From Escherichia phage SUT_E420: DNA of 64,000 nucleotides. Under the pieces are notes generated by a model. The model searched no databases. It saw only the letters and a list, made by a program, of their open reading frames with translations, and was not told the origin of the DNA. The first letter of the stretch is position 1, and each line of letters opens with the position of its first letter. The stretch is from the sequence record OQ990039; one strand, written 5' to 3'. Shown here piece after piece: positions 27,989 to 41,476 of the stretch. The translations under genes were made by a program, and so were the position numbers.

Positions 27989-27989
27989 A

Positions 27990-28489: not shown

Positions 28490-28519
28490 TTGGCTTCCCT
28501 CTCATTAATTTATATAAAT

Positions 28520-28548: not shown

Positions 28549-28556
28549 ATGAATTT

Positions 28557-28724
28557 TTAATAAAGTTTAGTCACTTCATAAACTATACTACGAGATTCTT
28601 TATTACGTTCTATTAAATTAGAATATGCTTTTTCAGCTTCATTTTTAGTATTAAAGTCTATAACGTGGGAGGTATTCGCTCTATTTGATTGACTATACCA
28701 GATAACTACTAATAATTTAAACAT
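28557..28724 (-). CDS. hypothetical protein
   Basis: ORF 28557-28751 trimmed to internal Met because upstream part overlaps tRNA. Confidence 0.4.
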   Translation of the reverse strand: MFKLLVVIWYSQSNRANTSHVIDFNTKNEAEKAYSNLIERNKESRSIVYEVTKLY

Positions 28725-28738
28725 AATAGTCCTTAAGT

Positions 28739-28825
28739 TGGTGCTGGGCACAGGATTCGAACCTGTAACGGGATTACTCCTCCTGATTACAAATCAGGTG
28801 CATTCAACCATTCTGCCAACCCAGC
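28739..28825 (-). tRNA. tRNA, 84 nt with long variable arm, apparent anticodon TGT
   Basis: Perfect acceptor GCTGGGT/GCCCAGC, T-arm ACAGG-TTCGAAT-CCTGT, anticodon stem CCTGA/TCAGG with loop TTTGTAA; 15-nt variable region atypical for Thr. Confidence 0.55.
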
Positions 28826-28990
28826 AGAACCCGTTATTTCAACGGGATTTCTTTTTCAATAACAGGAGACTTATCAGTCATAACCGCCATTGCCATTTGT
28901 TGTAGAAATTCAAAGGTGAAGGCTACACGTTCTTCACCAATCTCTACTTCTACACGTTTCTTTTGTTTATCGATCTTGACTTTTAGGTTA

Positions 28991-29242
28991 TCAGCCATTA
29001 GAGAGTACAGTACTGGTAGTTGGCAATACTACAGATGAAGCAACAGTGTTTAAATGCTTTCTCCAGTCTAGGTTAAATTGTTTTCGAAACTCTTCATAAG
29101 GTTCTTCTGGATAAAAGCTAAAACCTCCTTTCTCATCATTCAGGATAACAGAGCCGTCAGTTTGTTCGTATGCTCGGTATGTTTCTCCAATAACAATAAC
29201 TCGTTTTTCGGTACTTTTATTACGAAACTCAAAAACGTGCAT
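28991..29242 (-). CDS. hypothetical protein
   Basis: 83-aa ORF. Confidence 0.45.
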   Translation of the reverse strand: MHVFEFRNKSTEKRVIVIGETYRAYEQTDGSVILNDEKGGFSFYPEEPYEEFRKQFNLDWRKHLNTVASSVVLPTTSTVLSNG

Positions 29243-29258
29243 AATGTTTCCTTAAAGT

Positions 29259-29334
29259 TGGAGCGGCTAGAGGGAATCGAACCCTACTCAGCGAGGCTTG
29301 GAAGGCCTGCGGCACAACCCGTGTGCTTAACCGC
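29259..29334 (-). tRNA. tRNA-Gly (anticodon TCC)
   Basis: Acceptor GCGGTTA/TAGCCGC, anticodon loop CTTCCAA, T-loop TTCGATT, CCA encoded. Confidence 0.7.
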
Positions 29335-29342
29335 TTATTGTT

Positions 29343-29418
29343 TGGCTGGAGAAGGAGGAATCGAACCTACCATTAACGGAGTCAAAGGCCGTTGTGCTAA
29401 CCGTTACACTACTCTCCA
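29343..29418 (-). tRNA. tRNA-Gln (anticodon TTG)
   Basis: Acceptor TGGAGAG/TTCTCCA, anticodon loop CTTTGAC, CCA encoded. Confidence 0.65.
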
Positions 29419-29424
29419 ATTATT

Positions 29425-29500
29425 TGGCTGGGATGCCACGGATCGAACGTGGAACCTTCGGAGTCAGAGGCCGACGATCTGCCAATTGATCTACATCCCA
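29425..29500 (-). tRNA. tRNA-Gln (anticodon CTG)
   Basis: Perfect acceptor TGGGATG/CATCCCA, anticodon loop CTCTGAC, T-arm CCACG-TTCGATC-CGTGG. Confidence 0.65.
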
Positions 29501-29512
29501 ATAATTTTTATT

Positions 29513-29707
29513 CTACGGAAAAATTGTTGTTGGCTCAGATTCTTCCAAACGTTTGCCTTCATGATCAACACGAATAACGCCGCATCCTTCGCAAATCACA
29601 ACTGCACCATAACCTTCTTTGACCTCAGCTTCTGTAATCAAACCAGAAAGATCACCAGTATCTTTACCCCACATATCAATGGAGCATTGTTTGCAGAAAT
29701 CAGCCAT
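29513..29707 (-). CDS. small zinc-ribbon-like protein
   Basis: 64 aa with CxxC (CKQC) and CEGC pairs; sits between tRNA genes. Confidence 0.5.
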   Translation of the reverse strand: MADFCKQCSIDMWGKDTGDLSGLITEAEVKEGYGAVVICEGCGVIRVDHEGKRLEESEPTTIFP

Positions 29708-29732
29708 ATTTTATTTCCTATTTAAGTTAATT

Positions 29733-29809
29733 TGGGGTGGCTAGTGGAATTCGAATCCACATAGGCCTGATTCACAATCAGGATCATTAACCAATTATGA
29801 TATAGCCAC
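29733..29809 (-). tRNA. tRNA-His (anticodon GTG)
   Basis: Perfect acceptor GTGGCTA/TAGCCAC, anticodon stem CCTGA/TCAGG with loop TTGTGAA, CCA encoded. Confidence 0.75.
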
Positions 29810-30175
29810 AATTGAAAACTCGCAGGGTTAGCGAAACCTTCCTCAATTAGCATGTTCTAGAATACTAATCAAGTTATCTCCTATTGCACGCAGCTCAAGA
29901 CGAGTACGAATTTTCAATTGTGGCGGCTCTCAGAAACTCTTCTACTCTAGTCTTAGCAGCTTACTCCCGAACGCATGTCGGGGAAGTCTTACTAAGCGCA
30001 TCAAATAGCACCGTTACACTTTGAGCCATTGGTGTATCAAGAAGCAGAAGGACTTGAACCTTCACGAGATAGACCATTTATCTCAGCCGCTTTATGAGGT
30101 ATGTTGCAGGGAGTGGATGTTCCCTATAAACCTTTTAGGCAGCCCCGTCTACCGATTCCGGCATACTTCAGGATT

Positions 30176-30270
30176 TGGAGGTAGGTAAGGGGATCGAACC
30201 CTTACACCGTATCACTACGATCAACCGATTTCAAGTCGGAGTCCAGCGCCAGCCATTGGATTGACCTACC
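30176..30270 (-). tRNA. tRNA-Ser (anticodon TGA), class II
   Basis: 92 nt; perfect acceptor GGTAGGT/ACCTACC, anticodon loop CTTGAAA, long variable arm, CCA encoded. Confidence 0.75.
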
Positions 30271-30282
30271 ATATAAATTGTT

Positions 30283-30373
30283 TGGCGGAAGAGGAGAGAT
30301 TTGAACTCTCAAGCCGTTTTACCAGTCAGCCACTTTCCAAGCGGTTTTCGTCGCCAATTCGATTTGCTCTTCC
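30283..30373 (-). tRNA. tRNA-Ser (anticodon GGA), class II
   Basis: 88 nt; perfect acceptor GGAAGAG/CTCTTCC, anticodon loop TTGGAAA, T-arm GAGAG-TTCAAAT-CTCTC. Confidence 0.7.
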
Positions 30374-30485
30374 AATAATAAGATGATGCCTCTATCACAC
30401 CAGGCAGTTACGCCTCGCTGGGATTCGAACCCATTAAAACAGCTCAACCGAGATAGTAGGTTTAATTTACTCTGACCATCAAATT

Positions 30486-30562
30486 TGGTGCGTGACAAGG
30501 GATTCGAACCCTCAAAACCCGACTTCTAAGGACGGTATGTATGCCAATTCCATCAATCACGC
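30486..30562 (-). tRNA. tRNA, anticodon TAG (Leu-type anticodon on a 74-nt class I body)
   Basis: Acceptor GCGTGAT/GTCACGC, T-arm GAGGG-TTCGAAT-CCCTT; anticodon stem has one mismatch, so identity is tentative. Confidence 0.5.
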
Positions 30563-30567
30563 ATGTT

Positions 30568-30646
30568 TGGTGGAGAATAACGGAATCGAACCGTTCTGAT
30601 GTCCTCGGTGCAAGCGAGGTGTCCACTCCATGCAGACCCATTCCCC
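30568..30646 (-). tRNA. tRNA-Ala (anticodon TGC)
   Basis: Acceptor GGGGAAT/ATTCTCC, anticodon stem CCTCG/CGAGG with loop CTTGCAC, CCA encoded. Confidence 0.75.
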
Positions 30647-30884
30647 AAATTCTTTAGTTTACTAAGGCTATTAGCTCGGCGTAACTACAGCACCTTCGCT
30701 TCAAGCGGAAGGAACCGCGTCATCTCGCAAACCCGATACACTATTCAGTTGCCGCTGAACCTAGTGGACTAATCTAGAACTTCTCCCGAATCGTAGGGAT
30801 CGTGCTTTTTGGCAGCCAGTCCTAGGTCGAGCTAATACCTTAGTGAACTATGATGAGGATTTCTCCTCATCAATTTATATAAAT

Positions 30885-30913
30885 ATTATAACAAGAAATT
30901 AAGCATTAAGCAA
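30885..30913 (-). promoter_or_regulatory. T5-early-type promoter (-35 TTGCTT, -10 TATAAT) reading into tRNA cluster
   Basis: 17-bp spacer; no protein gene immediately downstream, only leader and tRNAs. Confidence 0.55.
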
Positions 30914-30931
30914 CTGCGTTTTTCTTGAAAT

Positions 30932-31010
30932 TGGTAGATCGCCTGGGACTCGAACCCAGAACCTTCCGATTAAAAGTCGGATGCTACTAAACCTATTGAG
31001 CTAGCGATCT
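30932..31010 (-). tRNA. tRNA-Lys (anticodon TTT)
   Basis: Perfect acceptor AGATCGC/GCGATCT, anticodon stem TCCGA/TCGGA with loop CTTTTAA, T-arm CTGGG-TTCGAGT-CCCAG. Confidence 0.8.
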
Positions 31011-31199
31011 ATTAGTAACCATTATACACTTCCTTAATAGAGTGGACTTTTAAGTAAGGGTGATTAGTACTAAACTCTACCATTACTTCATCCCAATTTT
31101 TACCATAATGAGCGAGTAAGGATTTTGATGTATTCTTACCTAACCGTTTGTCACTTACTACTAATCGAAATACTTTCATTTCGAAATCCTCTATTAAAA

Positions 31200-31277
31200 T
31201 GGAAGCGGGTGCAGGAATCGAACCTACCTCTTTCTAGCTTATGAGACTAGCGATCTCTACCAGAGATCTAACCCGCA
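31200..31277 (-). tRNA. tRNA, anticodon CAT (Met or Ile2)
   Basis: Anticodon stem CTAGT/GCTAG with loop CTCATAA; position 1-72 unpaired, which may indicate an initiator-like tRNA. Confidence 0.6.
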
Positions 31278-31283
31278 ATTGTT

Positions 31284-31359
31284 TGGTCAGTGCGGCAGGA
31301 CTCGAACCTGCGACCCGAAGCATCCAAGGCTCCCACGCTACCAACTGCGCTACGCACTG
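31284..31359 (-). tRNA. tRNA-Pro (anticodon TGG)
   Basis: Perfect acceptor CAGTGCG/CGCACTG, anticodon loop CTTGGAT, T-arm GCAGG-TTCGAGT-CCTGC. Confidence 0.75.
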
Positions 31360-31368
31360 TTAATTCTT

Positions 31369-31566
31369 TTATTGTGGAGGAATATTAATAATTCGTCCGT
31401 CTACACAATAAACGGTACTAGGAATTGTACTATATATGTAGAAATTCTTTATATTACTCTCTCCGCCACAGAAATTTTTAGCAAATTCATACTCTTTATT
31501 AATGGTTGAGTCAAGTTTAAAACAACCAGTAAGTAGGAATACAGACAGCAGTAAAACTTTTTTCAT
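31369..31566 (-). CDS. small lipoprotein
   Basis: 65 aa; signal peptide MKKVLLLSVFLLTGC with lipobox LTGC. Confidence 0.55.
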   Translation of the reverse strand: MKKVLLLSVFLLTGCFKLDSTINKEYEFAKNFCGGESNIKNFYIYSTIPSTVYCVDGRIINIPPQ

Positions 31567-31598
31567 TTTGCTTTCCTTCTCAACACTTTATAAGGTAT

Positions 31599-31627
31599 AT
31601 TATACAGAGAATTAAGCATAATAGCAA
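31599..31627 (-). promoter_or_regulatory. T5-early-type promoter (-35 TTGCTA, -10 TATAAT)
   Basis: 17-bp spacer; drives lipoprotein gene and downstream tRNAs. Confidence 0.6.
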
Positions 31628-32019
31628 ATGAATTTTTAATAAATTTACTTATTGTGTAGGCCACCTGGAGGCTACCAACCCCACGGCTGACAAAGAAGTT
31701 TGCGAGACCTCTCTTAAGTGCCAGAATAGACCCGCCGATCTATCGGAACCTACATAATAAGTAAACTTTATAGTGTCATTCTAGACAGGACTCGAACCTG
31801 TTATCACTTGTGCGGACTTACGAGAACCATTCTTTCACTCGAATCGAACGAGCTTCTGCCCTCGCCAAGCTGGTTTCCCCATCAACCACGCTAGAATGTT
31901 TGATTGTTTTCAGTGCAAGAGTCCGAGTCTTGGACACGACCGCTTCGCAAGTACATAGGCAGCTTATCATGAGTCAGCACTTCCGAATTGCTAGCTCCGT
32001 GTTCTGCACTGAAATTTTA

Positions 32020-32367
32020 TTAGTTTAACCGTAAAGTATTATCTACTTCACCCTTAATTGTTCGGCATTCTTCTGGGATTGCTGGTGTAGCCTTATATTC
32101 CCACCATTCAGAACCGTCGTATTCACCACGTTCTAACCAAGTTCCATCAGTAAACCACACGTTACCATAAAGCAATTGCCCACCGAAACCAGAATCATAT
32201 TTAAAGTCTAGATTATTTAGAAAATCTTCAATATCTTTTTCTGTATAACCTACGGGTAACACCCAAACTTCTTTGTCCCCATAATAACCGAATTCTATCT
32301 TAATACACTTAACTTCAGAATTAATATTCTTTAAGGCAAGTAACAATTCTTCTTTAGCATTAATCAT
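32020..32367 (-). CDS. hypothetical protein
   Basis: 115-aa ORF. Confidence 0.5.
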   Translation of the reverse strand: MINAKEELLLALKNINSEVKCIKIEFGYYGDKEVWVLPVGYTEKDIEDFLNNLDFKYDSGFGGQLLYGNVWFTDGTWLERGEYDGSEWWEYKATPAIPEECRTIKGEVDNTLRLN

Positions 32368-32393
32368 AGCATATTTCTCGTACTAGTTTAATT

Positions 32394-32470
32394 TGGCGCG
32401 ACCGATGGGATTTGAACCCACATTCCCTCCCGTGACAGGGGAGTACCATTACCAAGCCAGCCCCGGTCGC
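32394..32470 (-). tRNA. tRNA-Asp (anticodon GTC)
   Basis: Perfect acceptor GCGACCG/CGGTCGC, anticodon stem CTCCC/GGGAG with loop CTGTCAC, CCA encoded. Confidence 0.8.
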
Positions 32471-32479
32471 ATAATTCAT

Positions 32480-32665
32480 TTACTCAGCTTTGAGTTTTTC
32501 AATAGCTGCATTAAGTTCTTTAAGAAACTTTTTTCGTACATTAAGACGGTTGAGACTTACTAGTATATCATGTTTAAGTTCTTCGATGTATTTCTTCTCA
32601 ACTTCAATATTGTTGATAGTGCTATCACGATGAACTTCTAGCTGTGCAATTACATTCTTGGACAT
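32480..32665 (-). CDS. hypothetical coiled-coil protein
   Basis: 61-aa ORF. Confidence 0.4.
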   Translation of the reverse strand: MSKNVIAQLEVHRDSTINNIEVEKKYIEELKHDILVSLNRLNVRKKFLKELNAAIEKLKAE

Positions 32666-32767
32666 GCTTGTTTCCTCAGTTATTAATGAAAATGGTATCT
32701 GTGACTGAATTCGATGTCAGCAATGATAGCTGGTTGGCTACCGGTTTACTTAACTCTACACAGAATT

Positions 32768-32850
32768 TGGCGGGCCGTGTAGGATTCGAACCTACGTTGT
32801 CTTTCGACATGGATTAACAGTCCACCGCCAAACCGCTTGGCTAACGACCC
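32768..32850 (-). tRNA. tRNA-Asn (anticodon GTT), 80 nt with 13-nt variable region
   Basis: Acceptor GGGTCGT/ACGGCCC, D-stem GCCA/TGGC, anticodon loop CTGTTAA, T-arm GTAGG-TTCGAAT-CCTAC. Confidence 0.65.
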
Positions 32851-33002
32851 TAAATTTATATTGCTGACTAGGATTTTCACCTAGACGGAGTTAGCACCGT
32901 AGCGTGTAGCGGCATACCTCTCCAAACCGTGCCTCATCTTTCAATTACGGAGACAGTGTTCCTACGCGTGCCTGAATTGATTTAACAACTCTTTCAGCAA
33001 AT

Positions 33003-33078
33003 TGGACGACCGCATGAGATTTGAACTCACATAAAAAGGATTTGCAATCCTTCGCCTAAGCCATTCAGCCAACGGTCG
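33003..33078 (-). tRNA. tRNA-Cys (anticodon GCA)
   Basis: Acceptor CGACCGT/GCGGTCG, anticodon stem AAGGA/TCCTT with loop TTGCAAA, CCA encoded. Confidence 0.75.
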
Positions 33079-33126
33079 ATTTATCTTGTTCTGTCATGTT
33101 GCTTCTCCAGTTCAATTTATGTAATT

Positions 33127-33155
33127 ATTATACAGAACTTTTGGAAACTAAGCAA
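33127..33155 (-). promoter_or_regulatory. T5-early-type promoter (-35 TTGCTT, -10 TATAAT)
   Basis: 17-bp spacer; immediately upstream of tRNA-Cys. Confidence 0.6.
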
Positions 33156-33420
33156 CTACATTTTTTAAAAATTTGATGCCTTTCTTTTTCTTCTTATATT
33201 TCCACGTTAAGGGATTCTGTCGATTATGAACGCTTGAGATCTTTGTCTCGTCAAAGTTCTTCAATATCATGTAATCACAGGATAATTGTTCTAATGGAAT
33301 GTGATCACCGTCAAAAGCGTATACATAAGGCTGTTGACTAGCACGATAATGATAGACTTTGTTAATTCTACGTTTCAGCAACTTATCCGCGCAGTAAATA
33401 AAGAAGTTTTCAGGATGCAT
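33148..33420 (-). CDS. hypothetical protein
   Basis: ORF 33148-33435 trimmed to ATG at 33420 with GAGGGAG ribosome-binding site; C-terminus overlaps promoter. Confidence 0.45.
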   Translation of the reverse strand: MHPENFFIYCADKLLKRRINKVYHYRASQQPYVYAFDGDHIPLEQLSCDYMILKNFDETKISSVHNRQNPLTWKYKKKKKGIKFLKNVVA

Positions 33421-33437
33421 CAGCAGCTCCCTCAATT

Positions 33438-33512
33438 TGGTGCACCCTGTTCGTATCGAACGAACCTCTCAAGCTCTTCAGGCAAGCGCTAATCCATCTC
33501 AGCTAAAGGTGC
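33438..33512 (-). tRNA. tRNA, probable Phe (anticodon GAA)
   Basis: Acceptor GCACCTT/AGGGTGC, T-arm GTTCG-TTCGATA-CGAAC; anticodon loop CTGAAGA if stem tolerates two mismatches. Confidence 0.5.
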
Positions 33513-33518
33513 AAATTT

Positions 33519-33595
33519 TGGCAAACCTACTAGGACTCGAACCTAGACCGTACGGTTTTGGAGACCGACATGCTGTCCAGTAACACTCTAGGAAT
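33519..33595 (-). tRNA. tRNA-Trp (anticodon CCA)
   Basis: Anticodon stem CGGT/ACCG with loop CTCCAAA; perfect T-arm CTAGG-TTCGAGT-CCTAG; acceptor has two U-U mismatches. Confidence 0.55.
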
Positions 33596-33603
33596 GCAGG
33601 AAT

Positions 33604-33680
33604 TGGCGTCCTGTGCGGGGATCGAACCCGCAAATCCTACCTTGAAAGGGTAGTGACTTTACCAGTTTGTCTAACAGGAC
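33604..33680 (-). tRNA. tRNA-Glu (anticodon TTC)
   Basis: Perfect acceptor GTCCTGT/ACAGGAC, anticodon stem CTACC/GGTAG with loop CTTTCAA, T-arm GCGGG-TTCGATC-CCCGC. Confidence 0.8.
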
Positions 33681-33687
33681 TTAAATT

Positions 33688-33778
33688 TGGTGTTGGATGA
33701 TGGAGTCGAACCACCCGAGACCCTTCCGAGTCGGCAGATTTACAGTCTGCTTCGCTACCTCTACGATACTAATCCAAC
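33688..33778 (-). tRNA. tRNA-Tyr (anticodon GTA), class II
   Basis: 88 nt; perfect acceptor GTTGGAT/ATCCAAC, anticodon stem GCAGA/TCTGC with loop CTGTAAA, long variable arm. Confidence 0.8.
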
Positions 33779-33842
33779 ATATTTAAAAGTATTCAAATAC
33801 TAGTTTAAACACTTTTAGATATGTTTCCAAATTAGATAACTA

Positions 33843-33870
33843 TTATATCAAGTTTTATGGCACTGAGCAA
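33843..33870 (-). promoter_or_regulatory. candidate promoter (-35 TTGCTC, 16 bp, -10 TATAAT) upstream of tRNA-Tyr
   Basis: Overlaps hairpin CACTGAGCAAG/CTTGCTCAGTG that follows the upstream gene. Confidence 0.45.
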
Positions 33871-33906
33871 GTCAAATTTTAAAGAACTTGCTCAGTGCTG
33901 TATTAG

Positions 33907-34182
33907 TTAGTCGAACTTAGGAGCGACAGTTAAGGAGAATGGAAGTTCGAAAACTTCTTCGCCCTCATCACTAACAGTAATTACACGACCTTTAAGTTCA
34001 GACATTGAAATATCAATATCAGCTTTTGCATCTGGAGCCATGCCAGCTTCAATACATTTAGCTTTAACTTCCGGCAGAAGTTCTACATCGTAGAAATAAA
34101 GCCATTCAATCTCACCTTCCCAGCCTTCCCAGGATTTACAGATTGCACTTTCAATACCAGTTGCTATAACACGATTTTGCAT
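33907..34182 (-). CDS. hypothetical protein
   Basis: 91-aa ORF. Confidence 0.5.
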   Translation of the reverse strand: MQNRVIATGIESAICKSWEGWEGEIEWLYFYDVELLPEVKAKCIEAGMAPDAKADIDISMSELKGRVITVSDEGEEVFELPFSLTVAPKFD

Positions 34183-34212
34183 TCGTTAACTCCTTCATCA
34201 ATTTATATAACT

Positions 34213-34242
34213 ATTATACCAGAAATTTAAAGCAAAAGGCAA
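34213..34242 (-). promoter_or_regulatory. T5-early-type promoter (-35 TTGCCT, 18 bp, -10 TATAAT)
   Basis: Conserved leader TCATCAATTTATATAA on plus strand. Confidence 0.5.
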
Positions 34243-34272
34243 GTACATTTTTAAAAATTCTGTTTGGAGGAG

Positions 34273-34479
34273 CTAAACTCCAGATTCTTCAGCTAAGTCT
34301 AGGCTAATAAGAGATATAGCCATAATTGCTGCTCCGTGTTCTCTTTCTCCTGTCTCTTTAGCTAGGGTTATAATATCAAGAAATTGCTTATGAAAGTCTG
34401 CAACCTCTTGAGTCATACCTGCCTCAGCAATCATGCCTTTAAGCATGAAACGTTGTGCGGTAATTTCGGGATTAGCCAT
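34273..34479 (-). CDS. hypothetical protein
   Basis: 68-aa ORF. Confidence 0.45.
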   Translation of the reverse strand: MANPEITAQRFMLKGMIAEAGMTQEVADFHKQFLDIITLAKETGEREHGAAIMAISLISLDLAEESGV

Positions 34480-34654
34480 GTTGTTTCTCCAGTTTCATGT
34501 TTAATAGTCTACAAATAAAATCAATGTCTTCATCTGTGCCTAGATCTCTATCTTCAAGAGTTGCCTTGAAGTTTTTCGTCAATTCCATGAGGATAACTTC
34601 TCTAGAACGACGTGTTGGCGGAGGTGGATGTCTATACATCTTATTTCCTTAAGT

Positions 34655-34731
34655 TGGTAGGGGTGGTGGGATTCGAACCCACAAAACCTGAATTTTAAGT
34701 CCAGTACCTATACCAATTCGATTACACCCCC
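34655..34731 (-). tRNA. tRNA, anticodon TAA (Leu-type anticodon on a 74-nt class I body)
   Basis: Acceptor GGGGGTG/CACCCCT, anticodon stem CTGGA/TTCAG with loop CTTAAAA, T-arm GTGGG-TTCGAAT-CCCAC. Confidence 0.55.
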
Positions 34732-34832
34732 ATGTAATCAGTTTATTAGTTGATACATATTATAGCCTAGTGAAAATCCTACTACTAGTCCCACAAACCA
34801 ACCAATATAATAATCTTTTAGTTTCACAGGTA

Positions 34833-35018
34833 TTATCCTCGTTCAATATCTAGGGAAACACCGCAGTTAGGATTAATACCTGTACCGTTGCAATTTGAAC
34901 AAATCCAGATATTGCAAAAAGTATCTCCTGCTTCTGCATCAGAACTTTCACCAATTCCCCTACACTCAGGGCAGGCACATTCTTCTAGCTCTTGCTTGAG
35001 TTCTTGAAACTTGGACAT
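34833..35018 (-). CDS. Cys-rich small protein (zinc-binding-like)
   Basis: 61 aa; CACPECRG and CSNCNG motifs. Confidence 0.5.
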   Translation of the reverse strand: MSKFQELKQELEECACPECRGIGESSDAEAGDTFCNIWICSNCNGTGINPNCGVSLDIERG

Positions 35019-35027
35019 ATAGTCTCC

Positions 35028-35216
35028 TTAGTCAATTACTTTTGAGGCTTCAAGGGAGTCGATATAGTATACGTTTTCTACCATAATCATATAATCTGCC
35101 ACTTTATCCATAGCTTGGGCCTCAGAGGTAGCTCTGGCTAACCTATATCCTTTTTTATATTCATCCGGGTATTCTCTATCTTGAATAAATACAACATAAA
35201 CTATGTATAATTCCAC
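35028..35216 (-). CDS. hypothetical protein
   Basis: ORF 35028-35363 trimmed: N-terminal part overlaps two tRNA genes; GTG start after AGGGG ribosome-binding site. Confidence 0.4.
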   Translation of the reverse strand: MELYIVYVVFIQDREYPDEYKKGYRLARATSEAQAMDKVADYMIMVENVYYIDSLEASKVID

Positions 35217-35236
35217 TTGTAATCCCCTAATTAAGT

Positions 35237-35314
35237 TGGTGGCTCCCCGAGGATTCGAACCTACGTACCTTCCGGTTATGAGCCGGGTGCTCATACCATA
35301 TGAGCTTGAGAACC
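35237..35314 (-). tRNA. tRNA, anticodon CAT (Met or Ile2)
   Basis: Acceptor GGTTCTC/GGGAGCC with G-U pairs, D-stem GCTC/GAGC, anticodon loop CTCATAA. Confidence 0.55.
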
Positions 35315-35320
35315 AGAATT

Positions 35321-35409
35321 TGGCGGAAGAAGTGGGAATCGAACCCACAAGGCTATATTTCAAACCGACAGATTAGCAATCTGCTGCAATACCGTTATGC
35401 TATTCTTCC
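35321..35409 (-). tRNA. tRNA-Ser (anticodon GCT), class II
   Basis: 86 nt; perfect acceptor GGAAGAA/TTCTTCC, anticodon stem GCAGA/TCTGT with loop TTGCTAA, T-arm GTGGG-TTCGATT-CCCAC. Confidence 0.75.
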
Positions 35410-35430
35410 GAATTTATAAGATATATTATA

Positions 35431-35949
35431 TTAGAAATTTAGCTTCATAGCAAGAAAATTTTTCAAGTTTTCGGTAGACATCTCATCCACATCTACGGGA
35501 GAAACAAAGCCGTTTAATTTTCTAGCAAATTTTTCACCCGCAGGATCGTTGTCTCCGACAGCTACCAATTTAAAAGGTAATAATTTCAGTTGCTTTAATA
35601 ACGCTTTTCCTGGAGAAGAACCTAACATTGCCAGGGCTGGATAACCAGCGTTATGTAGCGCAACTGCCTTAAATACAGATTCAGCGATCAATACTACTTT
35701 TTCATCTCCATTGAGAGTTTCTAGTCCCCATACACACTGGGTAGTAGAATAAGTAAAATATTTAGCTTCAAAGGGACACTTACCATGACCTTTTGGAGCA
35801 GAAGGATTATACGTCTGATAGCCTCGCAACATCCCGGAGAAGTCATACAACGGGACTGTTAGCCATCCTTCCGGACTTAACCAGCAATGATATTTATCTG
35901 TATCAAATCCTCTGGATAAGAGGTGCTGTGTTAGCTCATCAACATTCAT
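35431..35949 (-). CDS. Toprim-domain protein
   Basis: ORF 35431-36000 trimmed to MNVDEL start with GAGAGG ribosome-binding site; VVLIAESVFKAVAL and GDNDPAG resemble the Toprim E and DxD motifs. Confidence 0.55.
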   Translation of the reverse strand: MNVDELTQHLLSRGFDTDKYHCWLSPEGWLTVPLYDFSGMLRGYQTYNPSAPKGHGKCPFEAKYFTYSTTQCVWGLETLNGDEKVVLIAESVFKAVALHNAGYPALAMLGSSPGKALLKQLKLLPFKLVAVGDNDPAGEKFARKLNGFVSPVDVDEMSTENLKNFLAMKLNF

Positions 35950-35979
35950 ATTTGGTTCCTCTCTCAAATTTATAGATAT

Positions 35980-36008
35980 ATTATACAGAGAATTTAGCAT
36001 TCAAGCAA
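35980..36008 (-). promoter_or_regulatory. T5-early-type promoter (-35 TTGCTT, -10 TATAAT)
   Basis: 17-bp spacer, conserved leader. Confidence 0.6.
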
Positions 36009-36124
36009 TCAAATTTTTTAACTTTTTAGAGGAAAATCATAGGGCACTTAAGGGTAGCAGATAAGTGGGGAGGACCAAAATTTGTGACCCCACTAAAAAT
36101 CCGGGGGCAATTTTTAAAGACCCC

Positions 36125-36153
36125 TTGACATTTTCGCTGGGGTAGTGTAAAGT
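36125..36153 (+). promoter_or_regulatory. sigma70-type promoter (-35 TTGACA, 17 bp, -10 TAAAGT)
   Basis: Consensus -35, starts the only plus-strand operon inside the minus-strand block. Confidence 0.55.
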
Positions 36154-36215
36154 ATATGTTATGGATGAGTGATCAAAGAGACACACATTTTCTATATACT
36201 AGGAGGTGTCAAAAT

Positions 36216-37205
36216 ATGACAGAAGAAGTAGCTAAGAGTCCTGAGACCGTCGCTAGCGTTGCAGCAGAACTGCACCGTCACGAGGAATCAGATAAGAAAA
36301 AGTGGGAGAAGGTCAGAGCCTACGAAGAAAAACATCGTGAACACGATGATGAAGAAGAAGATGACGATGATGAACATTGTCATAAATATGGAAAACATAA
36401 AATGCAAGAACCAGTAAACGTATTCACTAGTGGCTTCCCTGGCCTACTGGGTGGTTACCCAGCAAACGCAGGTGCTTTCGGTGGTGAAGGTATGGGACTA
36501 TTCGGAGCTATCCTAATCGGTGCTCTATTAACCGGCGGATTCGGTGGTTTCGGTGGATTCGGTGGACGTGGTGTAGTTGGTGAAGGTACCGCAGTTGATG
36601 CAGTACTTCAGAACCAAGATACCGCTAGTATTCTAGCAGCTATCAACACTACTCGTACAGAGGCTAACCAGGGTACTGGAGCTGTTTTAAGCGCAGTTAA
36701 CAATGGTTTTAGCCAGACAACCCAAAACCAGAGCCGTGATACTCAGTCTGTACTAACTACGATCTACGGTACAGGTGCTAATCTGTCTAATCAGATCTGC
36801 CAGGAAACTCGCAACGTTATTCAGGGTCAGTTCGATCTTTCTCGCCAGATTGATCAATCTTTCGCAGCTAACCAGATAGCTCGTGCACAAGATAAGTTTG
36901 ATTCTGCACAGATCGCTTTCCAGCAGACTTTACAAACTAATAACCAGTTTGCCGCTGTTCAGGCTCAGATGTGTGCTAACCAGAACTCTCTGGAACGTCA
37001 GATCGCTGAATGTTGCTGTGAACTTCAGACTGCGATCGCTGGTGTAACTACTGCGCGTATCCAGGATGAGTTAGACGCATGTCGCCTACGTGAAGCAATC
37101 GCTGCGGGTAGCGGTGCTAACGGTCAGGTAATTAATCAAATCGCTTTAAGTCTTGGTGCTATCACTCAGACTCTGGCTGGTCTGCAGGCTAAACTGCCGG
37201 CTTAA
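36216..37205 (+). CDS. glycine-zipper membrane protein with acidic N-terminus and Q/N/T-rich C-terminal half
   Basis: ORF 36156-37205 trimmed to MTEEVAK start after AGGAGG; DDEEEDDDDEH run, GxxxG-rich hydrophobic GMGLFGAILIGALLTGGFGGFGGFGG, low-complexity tail, C-terminal CCC. Confidence 0.55.
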   Translation: MTEEVAKSPETVASVAAELHRHEESDKKKWEKVRAYEEKHREHDDEEEDDDDEHCHKYGKHKMQEPVNVFTSGFPGLLGGYPANAGAFGGEGMGLFGAILIGALLTGGFGGFGGFGGRGVVGEGTAVDAVLQNQDTASILAAINTTRTEANQGTGAVLSAVNNGFSQTTQNQSRDTQSVLTTIYGTGANLSNQICQETRNVIQGQFDLSRQIDQSFAANQIARAQDKFDSAQIAFQQTLQTNNQFAAVQAQMCANQNSLERQIAECCCELQTAIAGVTTARIQDELDACRLREAIAAGSGANGQVINQIALSLGAITQTLAGLQAKLPA

Positions 37206-37226
37206 TATTAAGGGGAGGAGCCCATT

Positions 37227-37643
37227 ATGAGTAAATATGGTTTTGTAAATAACGGACTTAATCAAAGTATGGGCTCCCAGCAGCCCATTCCGGGTCTGGA
37301 TAACCCCTACTTACAACAGTTGCAACAGCGTTTAGCAGAAGCGCAACAGATGCAGCAACAACTCCAGCAAAACCCTGGAAGTGTGAGTCCTATGCAAATG
37401 ATGCAGCAAATGAGCGGGCAGTCGCAAATGCCTCAACAAATGCAGCAACAGGTGCCTCAGCAGCAAGTTCAGCAACAAACCCAACAACCGCAGGTTTCTG
37501 CGGAAGGACAGGCAGTACTAGCCCTTTTCGAAGACTTCGCAAAGACAGAGGATGGGAAACAGCTTGTATCACTTATGGGTAAGTTTAATAGCTTCTGCCA
37601 AAGCCAAGTTGCAAAAGCTCAAAATGGGGGTAGTAACTCCTAA
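37227..37643 (+). CDS. glutamine-rich low-complexity protein
   Basis: 138 aa, about one third Gln (QQLQQ, QQMQQQ repeats); GGAGG ribosome-binding site. Confidence 0.5.
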   Translation: MSKYGFVNNGLNQSMGSQQPIPGLDNPYLQQLQQRLAEAQQMQQQLQQNPGSVSPMQMMQQMSGQSQMPQQMQQQVPQQQVQQQTQQPQVSAEGQAVLALFEDFAKTEDGKQLVSLMGKFNSFCQSQVAKAQNGGSNS

Positions 37644-37652
37644 GGAGGAAAT

Positions 37653-37847
37653 ATGTGTTGCAGAAAATCTGTTTCGTGCTGCCCAGTGCCTGTAGCACGT
37701 TGTTGCTCTCCAGCAATGTTTACGCAAATACCGGCGTTCAATCCCTTTGCCTTTAAGCCTACTCTTATCCTGCCCCCTAGAGTAGATTTTCAGTCAAGAT
37801 TGGCCTCCCGTATGGGTGGTTGCTGTACACCGAGAGTATGGTTCTAA
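37653..37847 (+). CDS. Cys-rich small protein
   Basis: 64 aa with MCC, SCC, RCC and GGCC Cys pairs; AGGAGG ribosome-binding site. Confidence 0.45.
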   Translation: MCCRKSVSCCPVPVARCCSPAMFTQIPAFNPFAFKPTLILPPRVDFQSRLASRMGGCCTPRVWF

Positions 37848-37859
37848 ACCAAAAACAAA

Positions 37860-37894
37860 AGCCCCTGCCGAAAGGTAAGGGGCTTTTTCTTTTG
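37860..37894 (+). terminator. rho-independent terminator of plus-strand cassette
   Basis: Stem AGCCCCT/AGGGGCT followed by TTTTTCTTTTG; second copy after the N-gap is an artefact. Confidence 0.8.
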
Positions 37895-38071
37895 CCTTAA
37901 ATACAGAAAANNNNNNNNNNNNNNNNNNNNNNNNNNNNNNNNNNNNNNNNNNNNNNNNNNNNNNNNNNNNNNNNNNNNNNNNNNNNNNNNNNNNNNNNNN
38001 NNNNNNNNNNGAGTATGGTTCTAAACCAAAAACAAAAGCCCCTGCCGAAAGGTAAGGGGCTTTTTCTTTTG

Positions 38072-38115
38072 CCTTAAATACAGAAAAGCCCGCGCTCTCG
38101 TAGGAAACGCGGGCT
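38072..38115 (-). terminator. rho-independent terminator after SPFH gene
   Basis: Stem AGCCCGCG/CGCGGGCT, then TTTTCTGTATTT on the minus strand; convergent with the plus-strand terminator. Confidence 0.7.
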
Positions 38116-38139
38116 TGGTTCGAAGATTACGTGTAACTA

Positions 38140-39087
38140 TTACTTGTTACGCATATCCATGATCATTTGACCATCGTAGCCAGTACCTACCACAGTCTGA
38201 GGTACACCACCTTGATACTTCTGAGCACGGATCATTTCAACTTCCAGTTGTTTCCAACGAATCATTTCAGGAGTAATGGTACGTTGCAATGCGGCGTTAG
38301 CTTCAGCTTCTTTCTTAGCTGCGTACAGTTTAGCATCTGCGTCACGTTCATTAGCAATAGCTTGGTTGTTACGAGCTTCACGATCTGCTTCTGCTTGTTT
38401 AACTTTTTGCTGTGCTTCCTGTTCAACGCGAGCAAGTTCAGCTTTCGCAGCATTAACTTGCTCTTCACGAACTTTGGTATTCTGTACCTGTTCCATGATT
38501 ACTGGCGGCAAGGTAATATCCTGAAGGAATACCTGCTTAACTGTGTAACCATATGGGCGCGCATACTCTTCAACTTCCTGTTGAATTGCAGTTTGCAATT
38601 GAGCCTGAATTTTAGCATCAAATAAATCTTGTGCTTTAGGTACAGACTTACCAAACTCACGAATAGTAGACAGTAATTTTTCAGTTACATACTTGTCTAG
38701 TGCCTGATCCTGAGTACCTGCGTTAATACGGTTAATCGGTGCTTTAGAACCATCAAACTGCAACATAACAGTCAGGTCAACAGTGGATTTAAACTTATCC
38801 TGGCTAGGAACCTGAAGTTTATCTAATTTTACAGCAATATCTTTTGTACTAAAAGTATCGAAAGATGCAAACGGGTTTACAAGATGGAAGCCCGGCAATA
38901 CTGGATTAGGGTCTACTTTACCCAGGAATGTTTGGGTTTTAACCGTACCATCAGAAACAATAGTATATGAATTAAAAGCTAGGATTAAACCTGCTAAACC
39001 AACTACAGCACCAATACCCCAACGTTTAATAGTACGAATTACTTTCTGCTCAGAAGTCAGTTCTTTCATATTTTTAGTAGCAAACAT
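38140..39087 (-). CDS. SPFH/band-7 (stomatin/prohibitin/HflK-C-like) membrane protein
   Basis: 315 aa; N-terminal TM WGIGAVVGLAGLILAF, band-7-like core, long Ala/Gln/Glu-rich coiled coil. Confidence 0.65.
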   Translation of the reverse strand: MFATKNMKELTSEQKVIRTIKRWGIGAVVGLAGLILAFNSYTIVSDGTVKTQTFLGKVDPNPVLPGFHLVNPFASFDTFSTKDIAVKLDKLQVPSQDKFKSTVDLTVMLQFDGSKAPINRINAGTQDQALDKYVTEKLLSTIREFGKSVPKAQDLFDAKIQAQLQTAIQQEVEEYARPYGYTVKQVFLQDITLPPVIMEQVQNTKVREEQVNAAKAELARVEQEAQQKVKQAEADREARNNQAIANERDADAKLYAAKKEAEANAALQRTITPEMIRWKQLEVEMIRAQKYQGGVPQTVVGTGYDGQMIMDMRNK

Positions 39088-39121
39088 ATATTTCCTTTGT
39101 TTTAGTTACAGTTAATAAAAT

Positions 39122-39196
39122 TGGCCGAGGTGACAGGATTCGAACCTGCATAAAGGAATTTAGAAGACTCCTGCCTCTCCCTTAGACTACACCCCG
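39122..39196 (-). tRNA. tRNA-Arg (anticodon TCT)
   Basis: Acceptor CGGGGTG/CACCTCG, anticodon stem GGAGT/ATTCC with loop CTTCTAA, T-arm GCAGG-TTCGAAT-CCTGT, CCA encoded. Confidence 0.7.
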
Positions 39197-39993
39197 TTTA
39201 AGTATTTTTAAGAACTCTCGTAAAAACTCTTAAAAATACAGACGATACCGGGAGAGTCATAAGTCTCACTCATTAAGTATTTCAAGACAAAATACAGTAA
39301 CGTCTATTATTTTCCAGTTTAAGTCAGGGTGACTTAGTGGTTATGTCCTGCGGTATATTGAGGACTCGGTTAGGCTTGGGGTCATGACTTCCCACCTTTT
39401 GCTGCTACTCAACAGGAGTTATCGCGAATTACCTGTGCTATTGTGCACCATTAGTGACATCTCTCATGTCAGCATTTCCCACTTTGTGGATAGCTTGAAA
39501 AACTACTCCGATATGGAGAAAGAACTTCACTATCCTAGAATACCTTCTAAAGTTCTTCTTTAGCCTGGACATAGTTAAATCGTAATAAAACTATTCAGCA
39601 GACTGGTTGGTTAGTCTGGAACCAACTACCGCGTGGTTTAGGCAGTGCGCAACTAACCTCGGAAGCTTTTATGTTAAAAGCATCAGTTATCCAGTTCTTA
39701 CCGACCGTAGGATTCGAACCTACATCTTCCACCAGTTACGGCTTGATAATACCAATTATACTAGGACGGCAGTGTTACTACATAAGTGATTTCCACACCC
39801 CACTATTTATAAATCAGAGAAGAGTTTAGGGGAGAGGTTTCAGACGCCTCATTTTACACGTTCTAGCCACTAACCGGGATTGCCGCCCCCTGTGTACTAG
39901 TTTTACAACTAACCCACCGACTCTATTCAATGCGCTCCGGTTGGGATTCTGCACTCAGCGTAATCGGCTCGCTGTTCCCTAATTTATGAATAT

Positions 39994-40022
39994 ATTATAC
40001 AGAATTTATAAGCATTTAGCAA
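39994..40022 (-). promoter_or_regulatory. T5-early-type promoter (-35 TTGCTA, -10 TATAAT)
   Basis: 17-bp spacer; no protein gene for about 900 bp downstream, so transcript is a long leader or ncRNA plus tRNA-Arg. Confidence 0.6.
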
Positions 40023-40703: not shown

Positions 40704-41171
40704 TTAAGTTTTAGTGACAACAGGTTTATAGAATGTATGTCCCTTAATCTTAGTTGTTTTCTTAAACTTCTTTGTCCAGTAAGGTTTATCTTTACCACTA
40801 TGGAAGTATAGTGCTCCATATGTAGGATCTTGTGGTAAATCAACGTAGTATATCACTCTAGCTAAATTCTTAGCGGTTTGCCAAGCCTCATCAGTTTTAT
40901 CAACTTTTGGTCTCTTAGATACCCAAGAGAACTGGTTAGACTGATATACTACTTTACAGTAGGAATCTGGGAATTTACCGGAGTTTACACGGTTTTTAGT
41001 AACATGTGCAATCGCCGTCATTCCCTTTATGCCCTCACCACGACTTTCGAAATAGATATTTTTAGCAATGCAATCTATTTCTTTTGCATCGTGCGATGCC
41101 TGACTACTAAAGCTGAAGGTAAGGGCAGCTACTAAAAGCAAAGCTGCCTTCATTCTTTTTACTCCTGCCAA
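40704..41171 (-). CDS. secreted SleB-like cell-wall hydrolase
   Basis: 155 aa; signal peptide ending SQA; YFESRGEG, KNRV, SYCKVV and QFSW match the SleB/CwlJ signature. Confidence 0.6.
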   Translation of the reverse strand: MAGVKRMKAALLLVAALTFSFSSQASHDAKEIDCIAKNIYFESRGEGIKGMTAIAHVTKNRVNSGKFPDSYCKVVYQSNQFSWVSKRPKVDKTDEAWQTAKNLARVIYYVDLPQDPTYGALYFHSGKDKPYWTKKFKKTTKIKGHTFYKPVVTKT

Positions 41172-41476
41172 TCATATTCAACACGATTGGGATTTTCTTT
41201 ATACCCTAAGTCAAGCAAATCATTACGCATATTTTGCTTAGCTACTGGGTTCGAGGTTACTAGTACCACTTTCTTTGGTCTCTGCCCAAATTCTAAGAGT
41301 AAACGAAGAATTTGATAACCTTCCATACCATCTACAGCCAAGTCATTATCCATATAAACGAAATGGCCGGTGGTATCAGTTTTATTCAGAAACTCTACAG
41401 CGGCTTCTGGGGTTCGAATGATAATGTCCATTCCGTGAAGATTACGCACATCATCAATCAAAATATGAAAAGTCAT
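41159..41476 (-). CDS. stand-alone CheY-like receiver-domain protein (tentative)
   Basis: 105 aa; ILIDDV, YMDNDLAVDGMEGYQIL and VVLVTSN resemble receiver-domain acidic pocket, phospho-Asp and Thr positions. Confidence 0.4.
   Translation of the reverse strand: MTFHILIDDVRNLHGMDIIIRTPEAAVEFLNKTDTTGHFVYMDNDLAVDGMEGYQILRLLLEFGQRPKKVVLVTSNPVAKQNMRNDLLDLGYKENPNRVEYDWQE

Follow-up and report, generated by a model that had tools for sequence, protein, structure and literature searches.

T5.080, the 315-residue product of a T5-type coliphage gene, is almost certainly an SPFH membrane protein, and our analysis favors an overall reading in which this early accessory gene encodes the subunit of a homo-oligomeric SPFH dome that would sit on the host inner membrane, facing the periplasm.

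Identity and setting of the gene

The window, i.e., the entire 64,000-nucleotide stretch of Escherichia phage SUT_E420 DNA that was analysed (OQ990039), belongs to a T5-type phage and is 100% identical to T5_ev212. The minus-strand ORF at 38140-39087 (315 aa, ATG start, stop codon included) is T5.080 of T5-type coliphage, with 100% identity to its counterparts in other phages of this type, and the ORF list contains no other SPFH ORF and hence no second SPFH paralogue in the region. Both the gene and its SPFH domain are already annotated in public records, with SPFH naming in several GenBank entries, and are not new. In the T5 reference the gene lies among annotated sigma-70 promoters and genes for tRNAs, nucleotide metabolism and replication. 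The features of the region, given from promoter to terminators, are the following:

39994..40022, minus strand: sigma-70 promoter-like site, TTGCTA-17-TATAAT (promoter scan, 10/12 match; T5 reference)
39197..39993, minus strand: non-coding leader of ~800 nt, 'RNAX, stable RNA with unknown functions' in T5 (T5 reference)
39122..39196, minus strand: tRNA-Arg, anticodon UCU, T5t25 (ARAGORN; Rfam tRNA, 49.3 bits; T5 reference)
39088..39121, minus strand: 34-nt spacer from tRNA to ATG (sequence, promoter scan)
38140..39087, minus strand: CDS of T5.080, SPFH/Band-7 protein (ORF list; Pfam Band_7, 64.2 bits; phrog_200, 1.9e-86)
38959..39015, minus strand: predicted signal-anchor transmembrane helix, residues ~25-43, after a K/R-rich N-tail (hydropathy, charge counts, AF2 helix 12-38)
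38413..38934, minus strand: SPFH/Band_7 domain, residues 52-225 (Pfam, alignment, AF2 model, Foldseek)
38218..38505, minus strand: long helix 195-270 and second helix 273-290, corresponding to SPFH cage-wall helices (AF2, indels, Foldseek)
38143..38217, minus strand: conserved C-terminal tail YQGGVPQTVVG...DMR (alignment conservation)
38086..38116, minus strand: intrinsic terminator, 12-bp hairpin then T-run, right after the T5.080 stop codon (terminator scan)
about 38027..38069, both strands: bidirectional terminator that also serves the convergent cassette T5.077-079 (T5 reference, BB1 annotation, sequence)

Just outside the T5.080 feature and without overlapping it, a run of 100 N occupies positions 37911-38010; its flanks read as duplicated sequence and it looks like a scaffold join, as does the first gap of the window, where the flanking duplicate measures 77 bp.

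T5.080 has the domain and fold of an SPFH cage subunit

The original prediction of a phage-encoded SPFH/band-7 membrane protein, with 315 residues and an SPFH core between a transmembrane helix and a long helix, is borne out in each of these parts by the ORF list, Pfam and the AF2 model. The Pfam Band_7 profile (PF01145) matches well above threshold, at 64.2 bits against a gathering cut-off of 23.6 (E=2e-17), and the match covers residues 52-225 and profile positions 13-176 of 176, including a VPSQDK motif (residues 93-98) that is invariant in the family alignment. The AF2 monomer model (pLDDT 78.5) features, in order, a transmembrane segment, the SPFH domain, a long helix, a further helix and a tail, which correspond to a helix at 12-38, an alpha/beta domain at 41-192, helices at 195-270 and 273-290, and a C-terminal stretch of 25 residues (291-315) modeled at low confidence, with pLDDT below 50. 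This conserved tail may, we presume, be the counterpart of the strand that forms the cap in cage structures of other SPFH proteins. A Foldseek search against the PDB matched the model over its full length, in 270-310 columns at E 9e-15 to 1e-8, to cage subunits of erlin1/2, PHB1/2, HflK/C, stomatin, QmcA and flotillin. The model does not feature the structural coiled-coil protein that would have refuted the original prediction: its fold matches SPFH cage subunits and not a virion coiled coil. Finally, indels in the long helix among relatives measure exactly 11 or 22 residues, the lengths to be expected where packed helices have to keep their register, and this may be read, together with the strong sequence constraint, as indirect support for the predicted ring or dome.

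A predicted periplasmic topology and the lipoprotein annotation

The hydrophobic segment near the N-terminus reaches a mean Kyte-Doolittle value of 1.79 in its best 19-residue window and is kept in all 34 of the 34 aligned relatives. In T5.080 the N-tail carries 6 K/R against 2 after the transmembrane segment, a charge bias that serves for prediction only, and the same asymmetry holds in the family mean over 34 members (3.4 in the N-tail against 1.7 in the 15 residues that follow the segment). These counts predict an N-in/C-out (type II) protein with its SPFH domain in the periplasm.

The T5 RefSeq record, phrog_200 and many GenBank records label the protein a lipoprotein, and a few relatives do have their hydrophobic segment end in a cysteine (e.g., AIGSC|S in P0115); this could serve for lipid anchoring and would likewise put the domain outside the cytoplasm. 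Lipidation obligatorily requires a lipobox cysteine, and T5.080 has no cysteine at all; 29 of the 34 relatives in the alignment lack one as well. Without a cysteine there is no lipobox, so that the label is wrong for T5.080, a lipoprotein being the least credible of the identities considered here and one already refuted by its sequence. The analysis thus corrects a widespread annotation and also predicts a periplasmic topology.

T5.080 is placed to be co-transcribed with tRNA-Arg

Scanning the minus strand revealed a single promoter-like site, at 40022..39994, and none anywhere downstream of 39994. With the T5 reference annotation placed on the window via the T5.081 offset, this site falls within the early promoter 'P 16-17', and it is probably the start of the T5.080 transcription unit. 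The transcript would accordingly not begin at the tRNA but ~800 nt upstream of it, and would pass through the non-coding RNAX leader, where the ORF list has short ORFs only and where a tRNA-like element is found at 39699-39770 (Rfam tRNA, 35.5 bits against a gathering cut-off of 29, with no ARAGORN call). The claimed absence of a promoter between tRNA-Arg and the ORF holds: the 34-nt spacer includes a Shine-Dalgarno sequence (AAGGAAA, 39091-39097), and the scan detected neither a promoter-like nor a terminator-like site within it. A shared upstream promoter, with no promoter or terminator between tRNA and ORF, is the layout of a tRNA-mRNA co-transcription unit, as known from the E. coli tufB operon.

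At the downstream end, the terminator convergent with the plus-strand cassette is likewise found where it had been predicted. The T5.080 hairpin (38116..38086) is followed by the hairpin at ~38027-38069 that ends the cassette and that the T5 reference describes as an efficient bidirectional terminator; the BB1 annotation shows two terminators here. Within the former hairpin, GCGC at 38092-38095 matches the T5 major nick site (T5 reference misc_feature 39746-7). Other Rfam matches in the region (anti-hemB, ctRNA_p42d, Thr/Trp leaders) are all far below gathering and are explained by the terminator hairpins. A literature search for T5 RNA-seq or transcriptome data found none.

Co-transcription of T5.080 with tRNA-Arg is thus consistent with the sequence and with the promoters and terminators mapped in the T5 reference. 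A functional link to tRNA-Arg(UCU) was considered and rejected, as all 14 Arg codons of the ORF are CGT or CGC, with zero AGA, and the tRNA-SPFH adjacency is confined to T5-like phages; there is therefore no functional coupling. The co-transcription originally proposed thus remains probable, while the adjacency is a matter of genome organisation.

Relation to known SPFH systems

By sequence T5.080 is closest to QmcA and the prohibitins (QmcA 3e-7, PHB2 9e-5 and PHB1 3e-4 among solved proteins), and by fold it matches the cage subunits of erlin, prohibitin and HflK/C. The T5.080 subfamily has no close homologue in E. coli, QmcA being the nearest solved protein at E ~1e-6. The best PDB sequence match is to the SPFH-NfeD complex QmcA-YbbJ (PDB 8z5g, an entry with 26 QmcA chains; 1.8e-6 and 3.2e-7) and lies mainly in the helical region. 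QmcA differs in being encoded with an NfeD partner, whereas T5.080 has no NfeD neighbor, and in facing the cytoplasm, whereas a periplasmic orientation is predicted for T5.080. The prohibitins PHB1/PHB2 are the nearest relatives by sequence when the SPFH domain itself is considered (PHB2 8.9e-5, PHB1 3e-4) and match the full length of T5.080 by fold. Prohibitins are anchored by their N-terminus with their bulk on the non-matrix side of the mitochondrial inner membrane, the equivalent of the periplasm, and are the analogous partners of AAA proteases. They are nevertheless hetero-oligomers of two paralogues, unlike the single phage gene, with identities of ~16-19%, and for T5.080 an AAA-protease partner is only putative.

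The HflK/HflC-FtsH complexes (7vhq, 7wi3, 9cz2) share with T5.080 the fold, namely SPFH domain, long helix, short helix and C-terminal tail. HflK/C face the periplasm from one N-terminal transmembrane segment, the arrangement predicted for T5.080, and to our knowledge they are the only E. coli SPFH pair that does so. The differences are that HflK and HflC are two paralogous subunits encoded together, against one subunit type for T5.080, and that the 315 residues of T5.080 leave no room for a long N-terminal extension. Foldseek identities to HflK/C chains are ~16-18%, and HflK/C are absent from the PDB profile matches of T5.080 at E≤0.01. An HflK/HflC equivalog identity was rejected, as the NCBIfam scan gave no family at E≤1.

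The family to which T5.080 itself belongs includes RB43 ORF139c, 44RR ORF098c, Aeh1 ORF064c and phrog_200, at 60-80% identity. The three T4-like homologues differ from T5.080 in lying beside tk and in having no tRNA upstream. They were reported in 2006 as novel ORFs of the 'SPFH domain/Band 7 family' (PMC1524935), and the T5 RefSeq note cites two of the three.

Distribution, conservation and genomic neighbors

The family ranges over T5-like, T4-like, ~153-kb and ~90-kb phages and also occurs as single chromosomal genes in some Gammaproteobacteria, with Providencia/Morganella and Methylococcales as the bacterial groups concerned; the subfamily has roughly 2000 members. A tblastn search located it at 726 places in 725 phage records, i.e., essentially one copy per genome, and any assembly would therefore be homo-oligomeric. 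Copies of at least 80% identity are present in ~440 records, against ~451 with the surrounding T5-type 4-kb region. Selection within T5-likes is strongly purifying (dN/dS 0.05/0.79 and 0.045/0.41, about 0.06-0.11), and identity across phage families stays at 76% aa despite saturated synonymous sites. Most of the gene is, according to the literature, lost in the Epseptimavirus NG_S8. In a CRISPRi-ART screen T5.080 was scored 'Not Fit' with 7 guides (PMC11879866 supplement). Overall, T5 can do without T5.080 on laboratory E. coli (K-12), and still the gene is kept in almost all cases and under strong constraint.

We then consider the neighbors, among which the original prediction had envisaged an NfeD-like partner in relatives and joint action with the adjoining cassette. 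NfeD was absent by Pfam scan from the seven neighboring ORFs in the window and from the upstream neighbor in three T4-like phages, the term 'NfeD' does not occur in the published T5 re-annotation table, and no recurrent partner was found in bacterial loci. When neighbors were clustered across 43 bacterial loci and 12 phage groups in search of a conserved partner, only the SPFH gene was common to the groups; T4-like phages have the genes of their tk region in common, and a SleB-like hydrolase recurs in four non-T4 groups. In other lineages the gene is never accompanied by the cassette T5.077-079, and the suggested joint action is not supported. T5.080 was also rejected as a known defence-system component, since it matched none of the PADLOC defence models.

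Possible roles during infection

Any particular client or phenotype of the predicted dome is doubtful, even for the best-placed candidates. Our searches found no functional study of T5.080 or of any phage-encoded SPFH protein, and among papers up to 2026 the reason for SPFH genes in phage genomes is still called unclear (PMC13239085). One candidate role, which we hold to be possible but unlikely, is mimicry of HflK/C, in line with the altered membrane proteolysis of the original prediction, where the phage dome would capture or displace host FtsH and so alter the proteolysis of host or phage membrane proteins. The predicted topology shared with HflK/C, the fold matches to their FtsH complexes and the proximity of the prohibitins across the SPFH domain all point this way, against which stand the missing NCBIfam and PDB profile matches, the low identity and the single subunit type. 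Because HflK/C was not reached by sequence search, the FtsH link is an argument from fold analogy; in addition, T5 is strictly lytic and no FtsH-sensitive T5 protein was identified in this analysis. Knock-down of the gene is moreover without phenotype (PMC11879866). With similarly low confidence, the protein might instead protect the envelope, as a scaffold that blocks DNA entry by superinfecting phages or counteracts abortive-infection or defence effectors that target the membrane. Its gene belongs to an accessory early region, next to the tRNA cluster and to T5.076, a neighbor listed as an anti-retron protein (PMC11879866), its T4-like copies lie beside tk among short, mostly unannotated ORFs, and its near-universal retention under strong purifying selection despite dispensability on K-12 would suit such a role. 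This is an argument of guilt by association, with no PADLOC match on its side and no paper tying SPFH to anti-phage activity or counter-defence found in the literature.

An involvement in lysis appears improbable. Here the partner of T5.080 would be T5.083, a secreted SleB-like hydrolase of the cell wall, which it might for instance confine or with which it might time lysis, both products being predicted periplasmic and a signal-peptide Hydrolase_2 protein being encoded 0.4-3 kb from the SPFH gene in T5-likes, the 153-kb phage (L032), L033 and the 90-kb phage (L034). T4-like loci nevertheless have no Hydrolase_2 homologue within 4 kb, and the lead is weakened by the very wide distribution of Hydrolase_2, found in 1283 phage records that include rV5-like and Pseudomonas phages not prominent among the SPFH matches. 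T5.083, like T5.080, scored 'Not Fit' (PMC11879866), and the shared order may be inherited synteny. A virion or structural coiled-coil protein is very improbable: the long helical region and the 3 peptides of a Vi01-like homologue in a virion mass-spectrometry preparation (PMC10892097) would be compatible with it, but three peptides are a trace level, the protein has an N-terminal transmembrane anchor and SPFH fold, its gene lies in the promoter, tRNA, nucleotide-metabolism and replication setting described above, and its knock-down had no effect on T5 fitness (PMC11879866).

A working model for T5.080

The reading we prefer, a homo-oligomeric scaffold that faces the periplasm, is somewhat better than an even proposition and leads to the following model. 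Promoter P16-17 would drive a unit comprising the leader RNA, tRNA-Arg(UCU) and the T5.080 mRNA up to the hairpin terminator, and tRNA processing would release the mRNA. Its product would be a type II inner-membrane SPFH protein whose copies most likely join in a homo-oligomeric ring or dome, as in erlin, prohibitin and HflK/C. On the basis of fold and topology, the transmembrane helices would fence a patch of inner membrane, with the long helices as the wall of a periplasmic cap, and during infection the dome would hold certain membrane proteins or lipids inside, or keep them out. Possible effects include a tuned turnover of membrane proteins (e.g., through FtsH) or an envelope kept functional or protected in infection, with a benefit that would be conditional and not needed for growth on laboratory E. 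coli.

More speculatively, and at odds we would rate as rather poor, the prohibitin-like subunit encoded by several unrelated large virulent phage lineages would form a periplasm-facing cage that either imprisons a host machine (e.g., FtsH) or protects the membrane against superinfection or the effectors of defence systems. Such a phage-made membrane compartment would be a factor of conditional fitness or of counter-defence. With phage and host both model organisms, T5.080 is a tractable case; the enclosed client, once identified, would reveal the way in which phages reshape the inner membrane, and the protein would offer a simple single-gene system for SPFH cage assembly.

Domain, fold and predicted topology of T5.080

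The reading frame at 38140-39087 (-) is the counterpart of phage T5 protein T5.080 (YP_006908.1), within a gene order that matches the T5 reference record NC_005859. Its original designation as a phage-encoded SPFH/band-7 protein named the domain rightly: its Pfam Band_7 match reaches 64.2 bits (cut-off 23.6) with nearly the whole profile covered, PHROGs assigns phrog_200 (1.9e-86), and no NCBIfam model matches. The transmembrane (TM) helix, SPFH core and long helix expected at the outset are all present in an AlphaFold2 model computed from 34 diverse relatives (mean pLDDT 78.5).

Segments of the T5.080 AlphaFold2 model
Residues 12-38: TM helix
Residues 41-192: alpha/beta SPFH domain
Residues 195-270: long helix of 76 residues
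Residues 273-290: second helix
Residues 291-315: C-terminal tail, low confidence

Foldseek comparison of this model with the PDB returned full-length matches (270-310 aligned columns) to erlin1/2 (E-value 9e-15), PHB1/2 (3e-13), HflK/C (4e-12), stomatin (1e-11) and QmcA (1e-10), then flotillin and, after it, major vault protein; the descriptions of several matched entries speak of cages or large complexes, and a 2025 paper portrays SPFH assemblies in general as rings building domed structures (PMC12624060). Sequence searches reached QmcA at 1.8e-6 (3.2e-7 with a profile) and otherwise only prohibitin 2 (~9e-5) and prohibitin 1 (~3e-4). T5.080 is a member of the SPFH superfamily and falls outside HflK/HflC, which neither sequence nor profile search reached; it also lacks a paired paralogue.

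The database label "lipoprotein" is wrong, and that reading is refuted by the sequence: T5.080 contains no cysteine, as is also the case for 29 of the 34 aligned relatives, and it falls outside the lipoproteins. Six K/R residues lie in its short N-tail versus two in the 15-residue stretch that follows the TM helix (family means 3.4 versus 1.7), and in a few relatives the hydrophobic segment ends in a cysteine that could serve as a lipid-anchor site; on these grounds the SPFH domain is predicted to lie on the periplasmic side, outside the cytoplasm. Length differences in the long helix among relatives are, without exception, exactly 11 or 22 residues, as would be expected if the packing register of the helix must be kept, as in a helical cage wall.

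Layout of a T5-type transcription unit

The T5.080 ATG, with a Shine-Dalgarno AAGGAAA 5 nt ahead of it, lies within the following set of elements.

Elements of the T5.080 unit
40022..39994 (-): promoter-like site TTGCTA-17-TATAAT, the sole minus-strand one upstream of T5.080
39197-39993 (-): leader RNA, ~800 nt, non-coding; in the T5 reference "RNAX, stable RNA with unknown functions"
39699-39770 (-): tRNA-like element inside the leader (Rfam tRNA 35.5 bits, gathering score 29)
39122-39196 (-): tRNA-Arg(UCU), same strand as T5.080
38140-39087 (-): T5.080 CDS, 315 aa
38116..38086 (-): hairpin with 12-bp GC-rich stem and T tail, after the stop codon
~38027-38069: neighbouring hairpin, by T5 annotation an efficient bidirectional terminator at the end of the convergent cassette T5.077-T5.079

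The layout originally described is confirmed: the frame lies directly downstream of tRNA-Arg, 34 nt away, the site scan found neither a promoter-like nor a terminator-like site in this spacer, and a hairpin follows the stop codon, beside the one that ends the convergent plus-strand cassette. After applying the T5.081 offset, the promoter-like site maps inside T5 promoter "P 16-17", and the ORF list shows no convincing ORF in the ~800 nt between it and tRNA-Arg. The order promoter, leader RNA, tRNA-Arg, T5.080, terminator is therefore apparent, and co-transcription of tRNA-Arg and T5.080 would agree with the sequence as well as with the curated T5 map. As for the proposed "fusion" to the tRNA, the adjacency is real and the special linkage is not, this being ordinary T5 genome organisation. 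Adjacency to tRNA-Arg is conserved in T5-like phages only, and as the arginine codons of T5.080 are all CGT or CGC, it gains nothing from the AGA-reading tRNA.

The tRNA-like element has an anticodon arm that looks irregular by eye and received no ARAGORN call, and the RNAX region is ~65 bp longer here than in the T5 reference. GCGC at 38092-38096 matches the 'major DNA single-chain interruption' annotated in T5 at reference 39746-7 (32.6% of genome length), so that the stem of the hairpin terminating T5.080 contains this T5 nick site.

The 4 kb around T5.080 match Escherichia phages T5_ev212, SUT_E520 and EC148 at 100% identity and many further T5-type phages at 97-99%. The window itself is a scaffold with nine N runs of exactly 100 N each.

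Runs of 100 N
First five: 784-883, 5573-5672, 15521-15620, 19696-19795, 25388-25487
Last four: 27095-27194, 37911-38010, 59525-59624, 61064-61163

An exact 77-bp duplicate flanks the first run, and the runs look like assembly artefacts in which contigs with k=77 overlap were joined by N spacers. The run at 37911-38010 lies just outside the feature; its flanks read as duplicated sequence, and relative to identical finished genomes the join adds ~177 bp of false sequence.

Distribution and constraint

Homologues were found by tblastn in 725 phage records, essentially one per record.

Phage homologues by identity to T5.080
T5-like phages: 80-100% (~440 records at 80% or more)
T4-like Klebsiella, Enterobacter, Citrobacter and Cronobacter phages: 76-80%
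Aeromonas T4-likes: ~60%
Aeromonas phage PX29 and a Vibrio phage: ~35%

Since the surrounding T5-type region is present in ~451 records, nearly all T5-likes retain the gene. The gene also occurs on viral contigs of about 153, 90, 85, 78 and 45 kb, and giant viruses as well as Vibrio, Rhizobium and Streptomyces phages have structural relatives. Searching 1.84 billion representatives with a profile retrieved only 1996 proteins at E<=1e-3 (85 at E<=1e-30), so the subfamily is narrow. Single chromosomal homologues occur in Providencia and Morganella (58-59% identity; loci L056-L068) and in Methylococcaceae, Methylophagaceae and other Gammaproteobacteria (33-41%; L069-L115), and Aeromonas chromosomes carry a 313-aa relative. 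Their settings are housekeeping and non-prophage, in Methylophagaceae behind a conserved five-gene block, and no recurrent partner gene was found at these loci. The Morganella homologue adjoins small GG-leader-like peptides and a 704-aa ABC exporter-like protein (bacteriocin-type cluster). Low dN/dS within T5-likes (0.05/0.79 and 0.045/0.41), together with 76% amino-acid identity between phage families despite saturated synonymous sites, indicates strong and long-standing purifying selection on the family.

Neighbourhood, dispensability and possible roles

An NfeD partner, suggested at the outset, is absent beside the gene in T5 and three T4-like phages and from the published T5 re-annotation table, and T5.080 falls outside the SPFH-NfeD operons. 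Action with the neighbouring cassette fares no better, as T5.077-T5.079 do not accompany the SPFH gene in other lineages; in T4-likes it adjoins tk amid short, mostly unannotated ORFs, without tRNAs. The products of the cassette (36156-37847, +) are three unusual proteins that belong to no Pfam family: one of 349 aa, whose N-part is acidic and whose C-part is Q/N-rich, with a Gly-rich hydrophobic stretch (GFGGFGGFGG), a 138-aa poly-Q protein, and one of 64 aa with four CC pairs.

T5.080 scores "Not Fit" (7 guides, fitness -4.28, p 0.85) in the transcriptome-wide CRISPRi-ART screen of T5, and so does every gene of T5.077-T5.084 (PMC11879866 supplement). Dispensability has a natural counterpart in the T5-like E. 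coli phage Epseptimavirus NG_S8, in which tRNA-Arg is kept and most of the SPFH gene is missing (locus L116, 2149-2629), two short ORF remnants directly following the tRNA; the convergent cassette is apparently deleted too.

The best-supported reading is that T5.080 is an early accessory protein whose copies assemble into a periplasm-facing, homo-oligomeric SPFH ring or dome at the inner membrane of the host, where it would delimit a membrane patch. Domain, fold, membrane anchor, single copy, sequence constraint, the layout of the transcription unit and dispensability in the laboratory are established by the results, and the topology, the oligomerisation and any client are inferred. A virion protein is very unlikely given a TM anchor, an SPFH fold, a non-structural neighbourhood and the absence of a knock-down phenotype. 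As to a client, by analogy with HflK/C and prohibitin the scaffold may capture or exclude FtsH. Envelope protection, as superinfection exclusion or counter-defence, is instead suggested by the accessory neighbourhood: the CRISPRi-ART annotation (PMC11879866 supplement) lists T5.076 as anti-retron, which gives this neighbourhood, beside a 21-tRNA cluster (27669-39196) adjoining T5.080, counter-defence content. T5.076 itself (35431-36000, -) is Toprim-like, labelled 'DNA primase' in RefSeq, and Semi-Fit in CRISPRi-ART.

T5.080 might also cooperate with the secreted hydrolase T5.083, a SleB-type cell-wall enzyme (Hydrolase_2) with a Sec signal peptide. Proteins of this type and of the T5.084 type (cREC_REC domain) lie 0.4-3 kb from the SPFH gene in four groups, recurring in T5-like, 153-kb and 90-kb phages and not in T4-likes, outside which the hydrolase is the sole recurrent neighbour.

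Hydrolase/cREC_REC neighbours
Window: 40704-41476 (-)
153-kb phage (L032): 5332-5823
Further phage (L033): 5343-5837
90-kb phage (L034): 5194-6015

Because such hydrolases are very widespread in phages this is a weak lead only, and the proximity may reflect either shared synteny or a functional link of little strength.

The feature is real, its domain is rightly identified, and the gene is already known, having stood for years in T5 genome annotation; a 2006 paper already lists the T4-like homologues as SPFH/Band 7 proteins (PMC1524935), and several GenBank records name the T5-like protein "SPFH domain-containing". Our literature search found no functional work on T5.080 or phage SPFH proteins, and according to a 2026 paper it "remains unclear" why a phage should have an SPFH gene (PMC13239085). 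The interest of the feature lies in why a prohibitin-like scaffold under strong constraint is retained by several unrelated phage lineages when it is dispensable in the laboratory.
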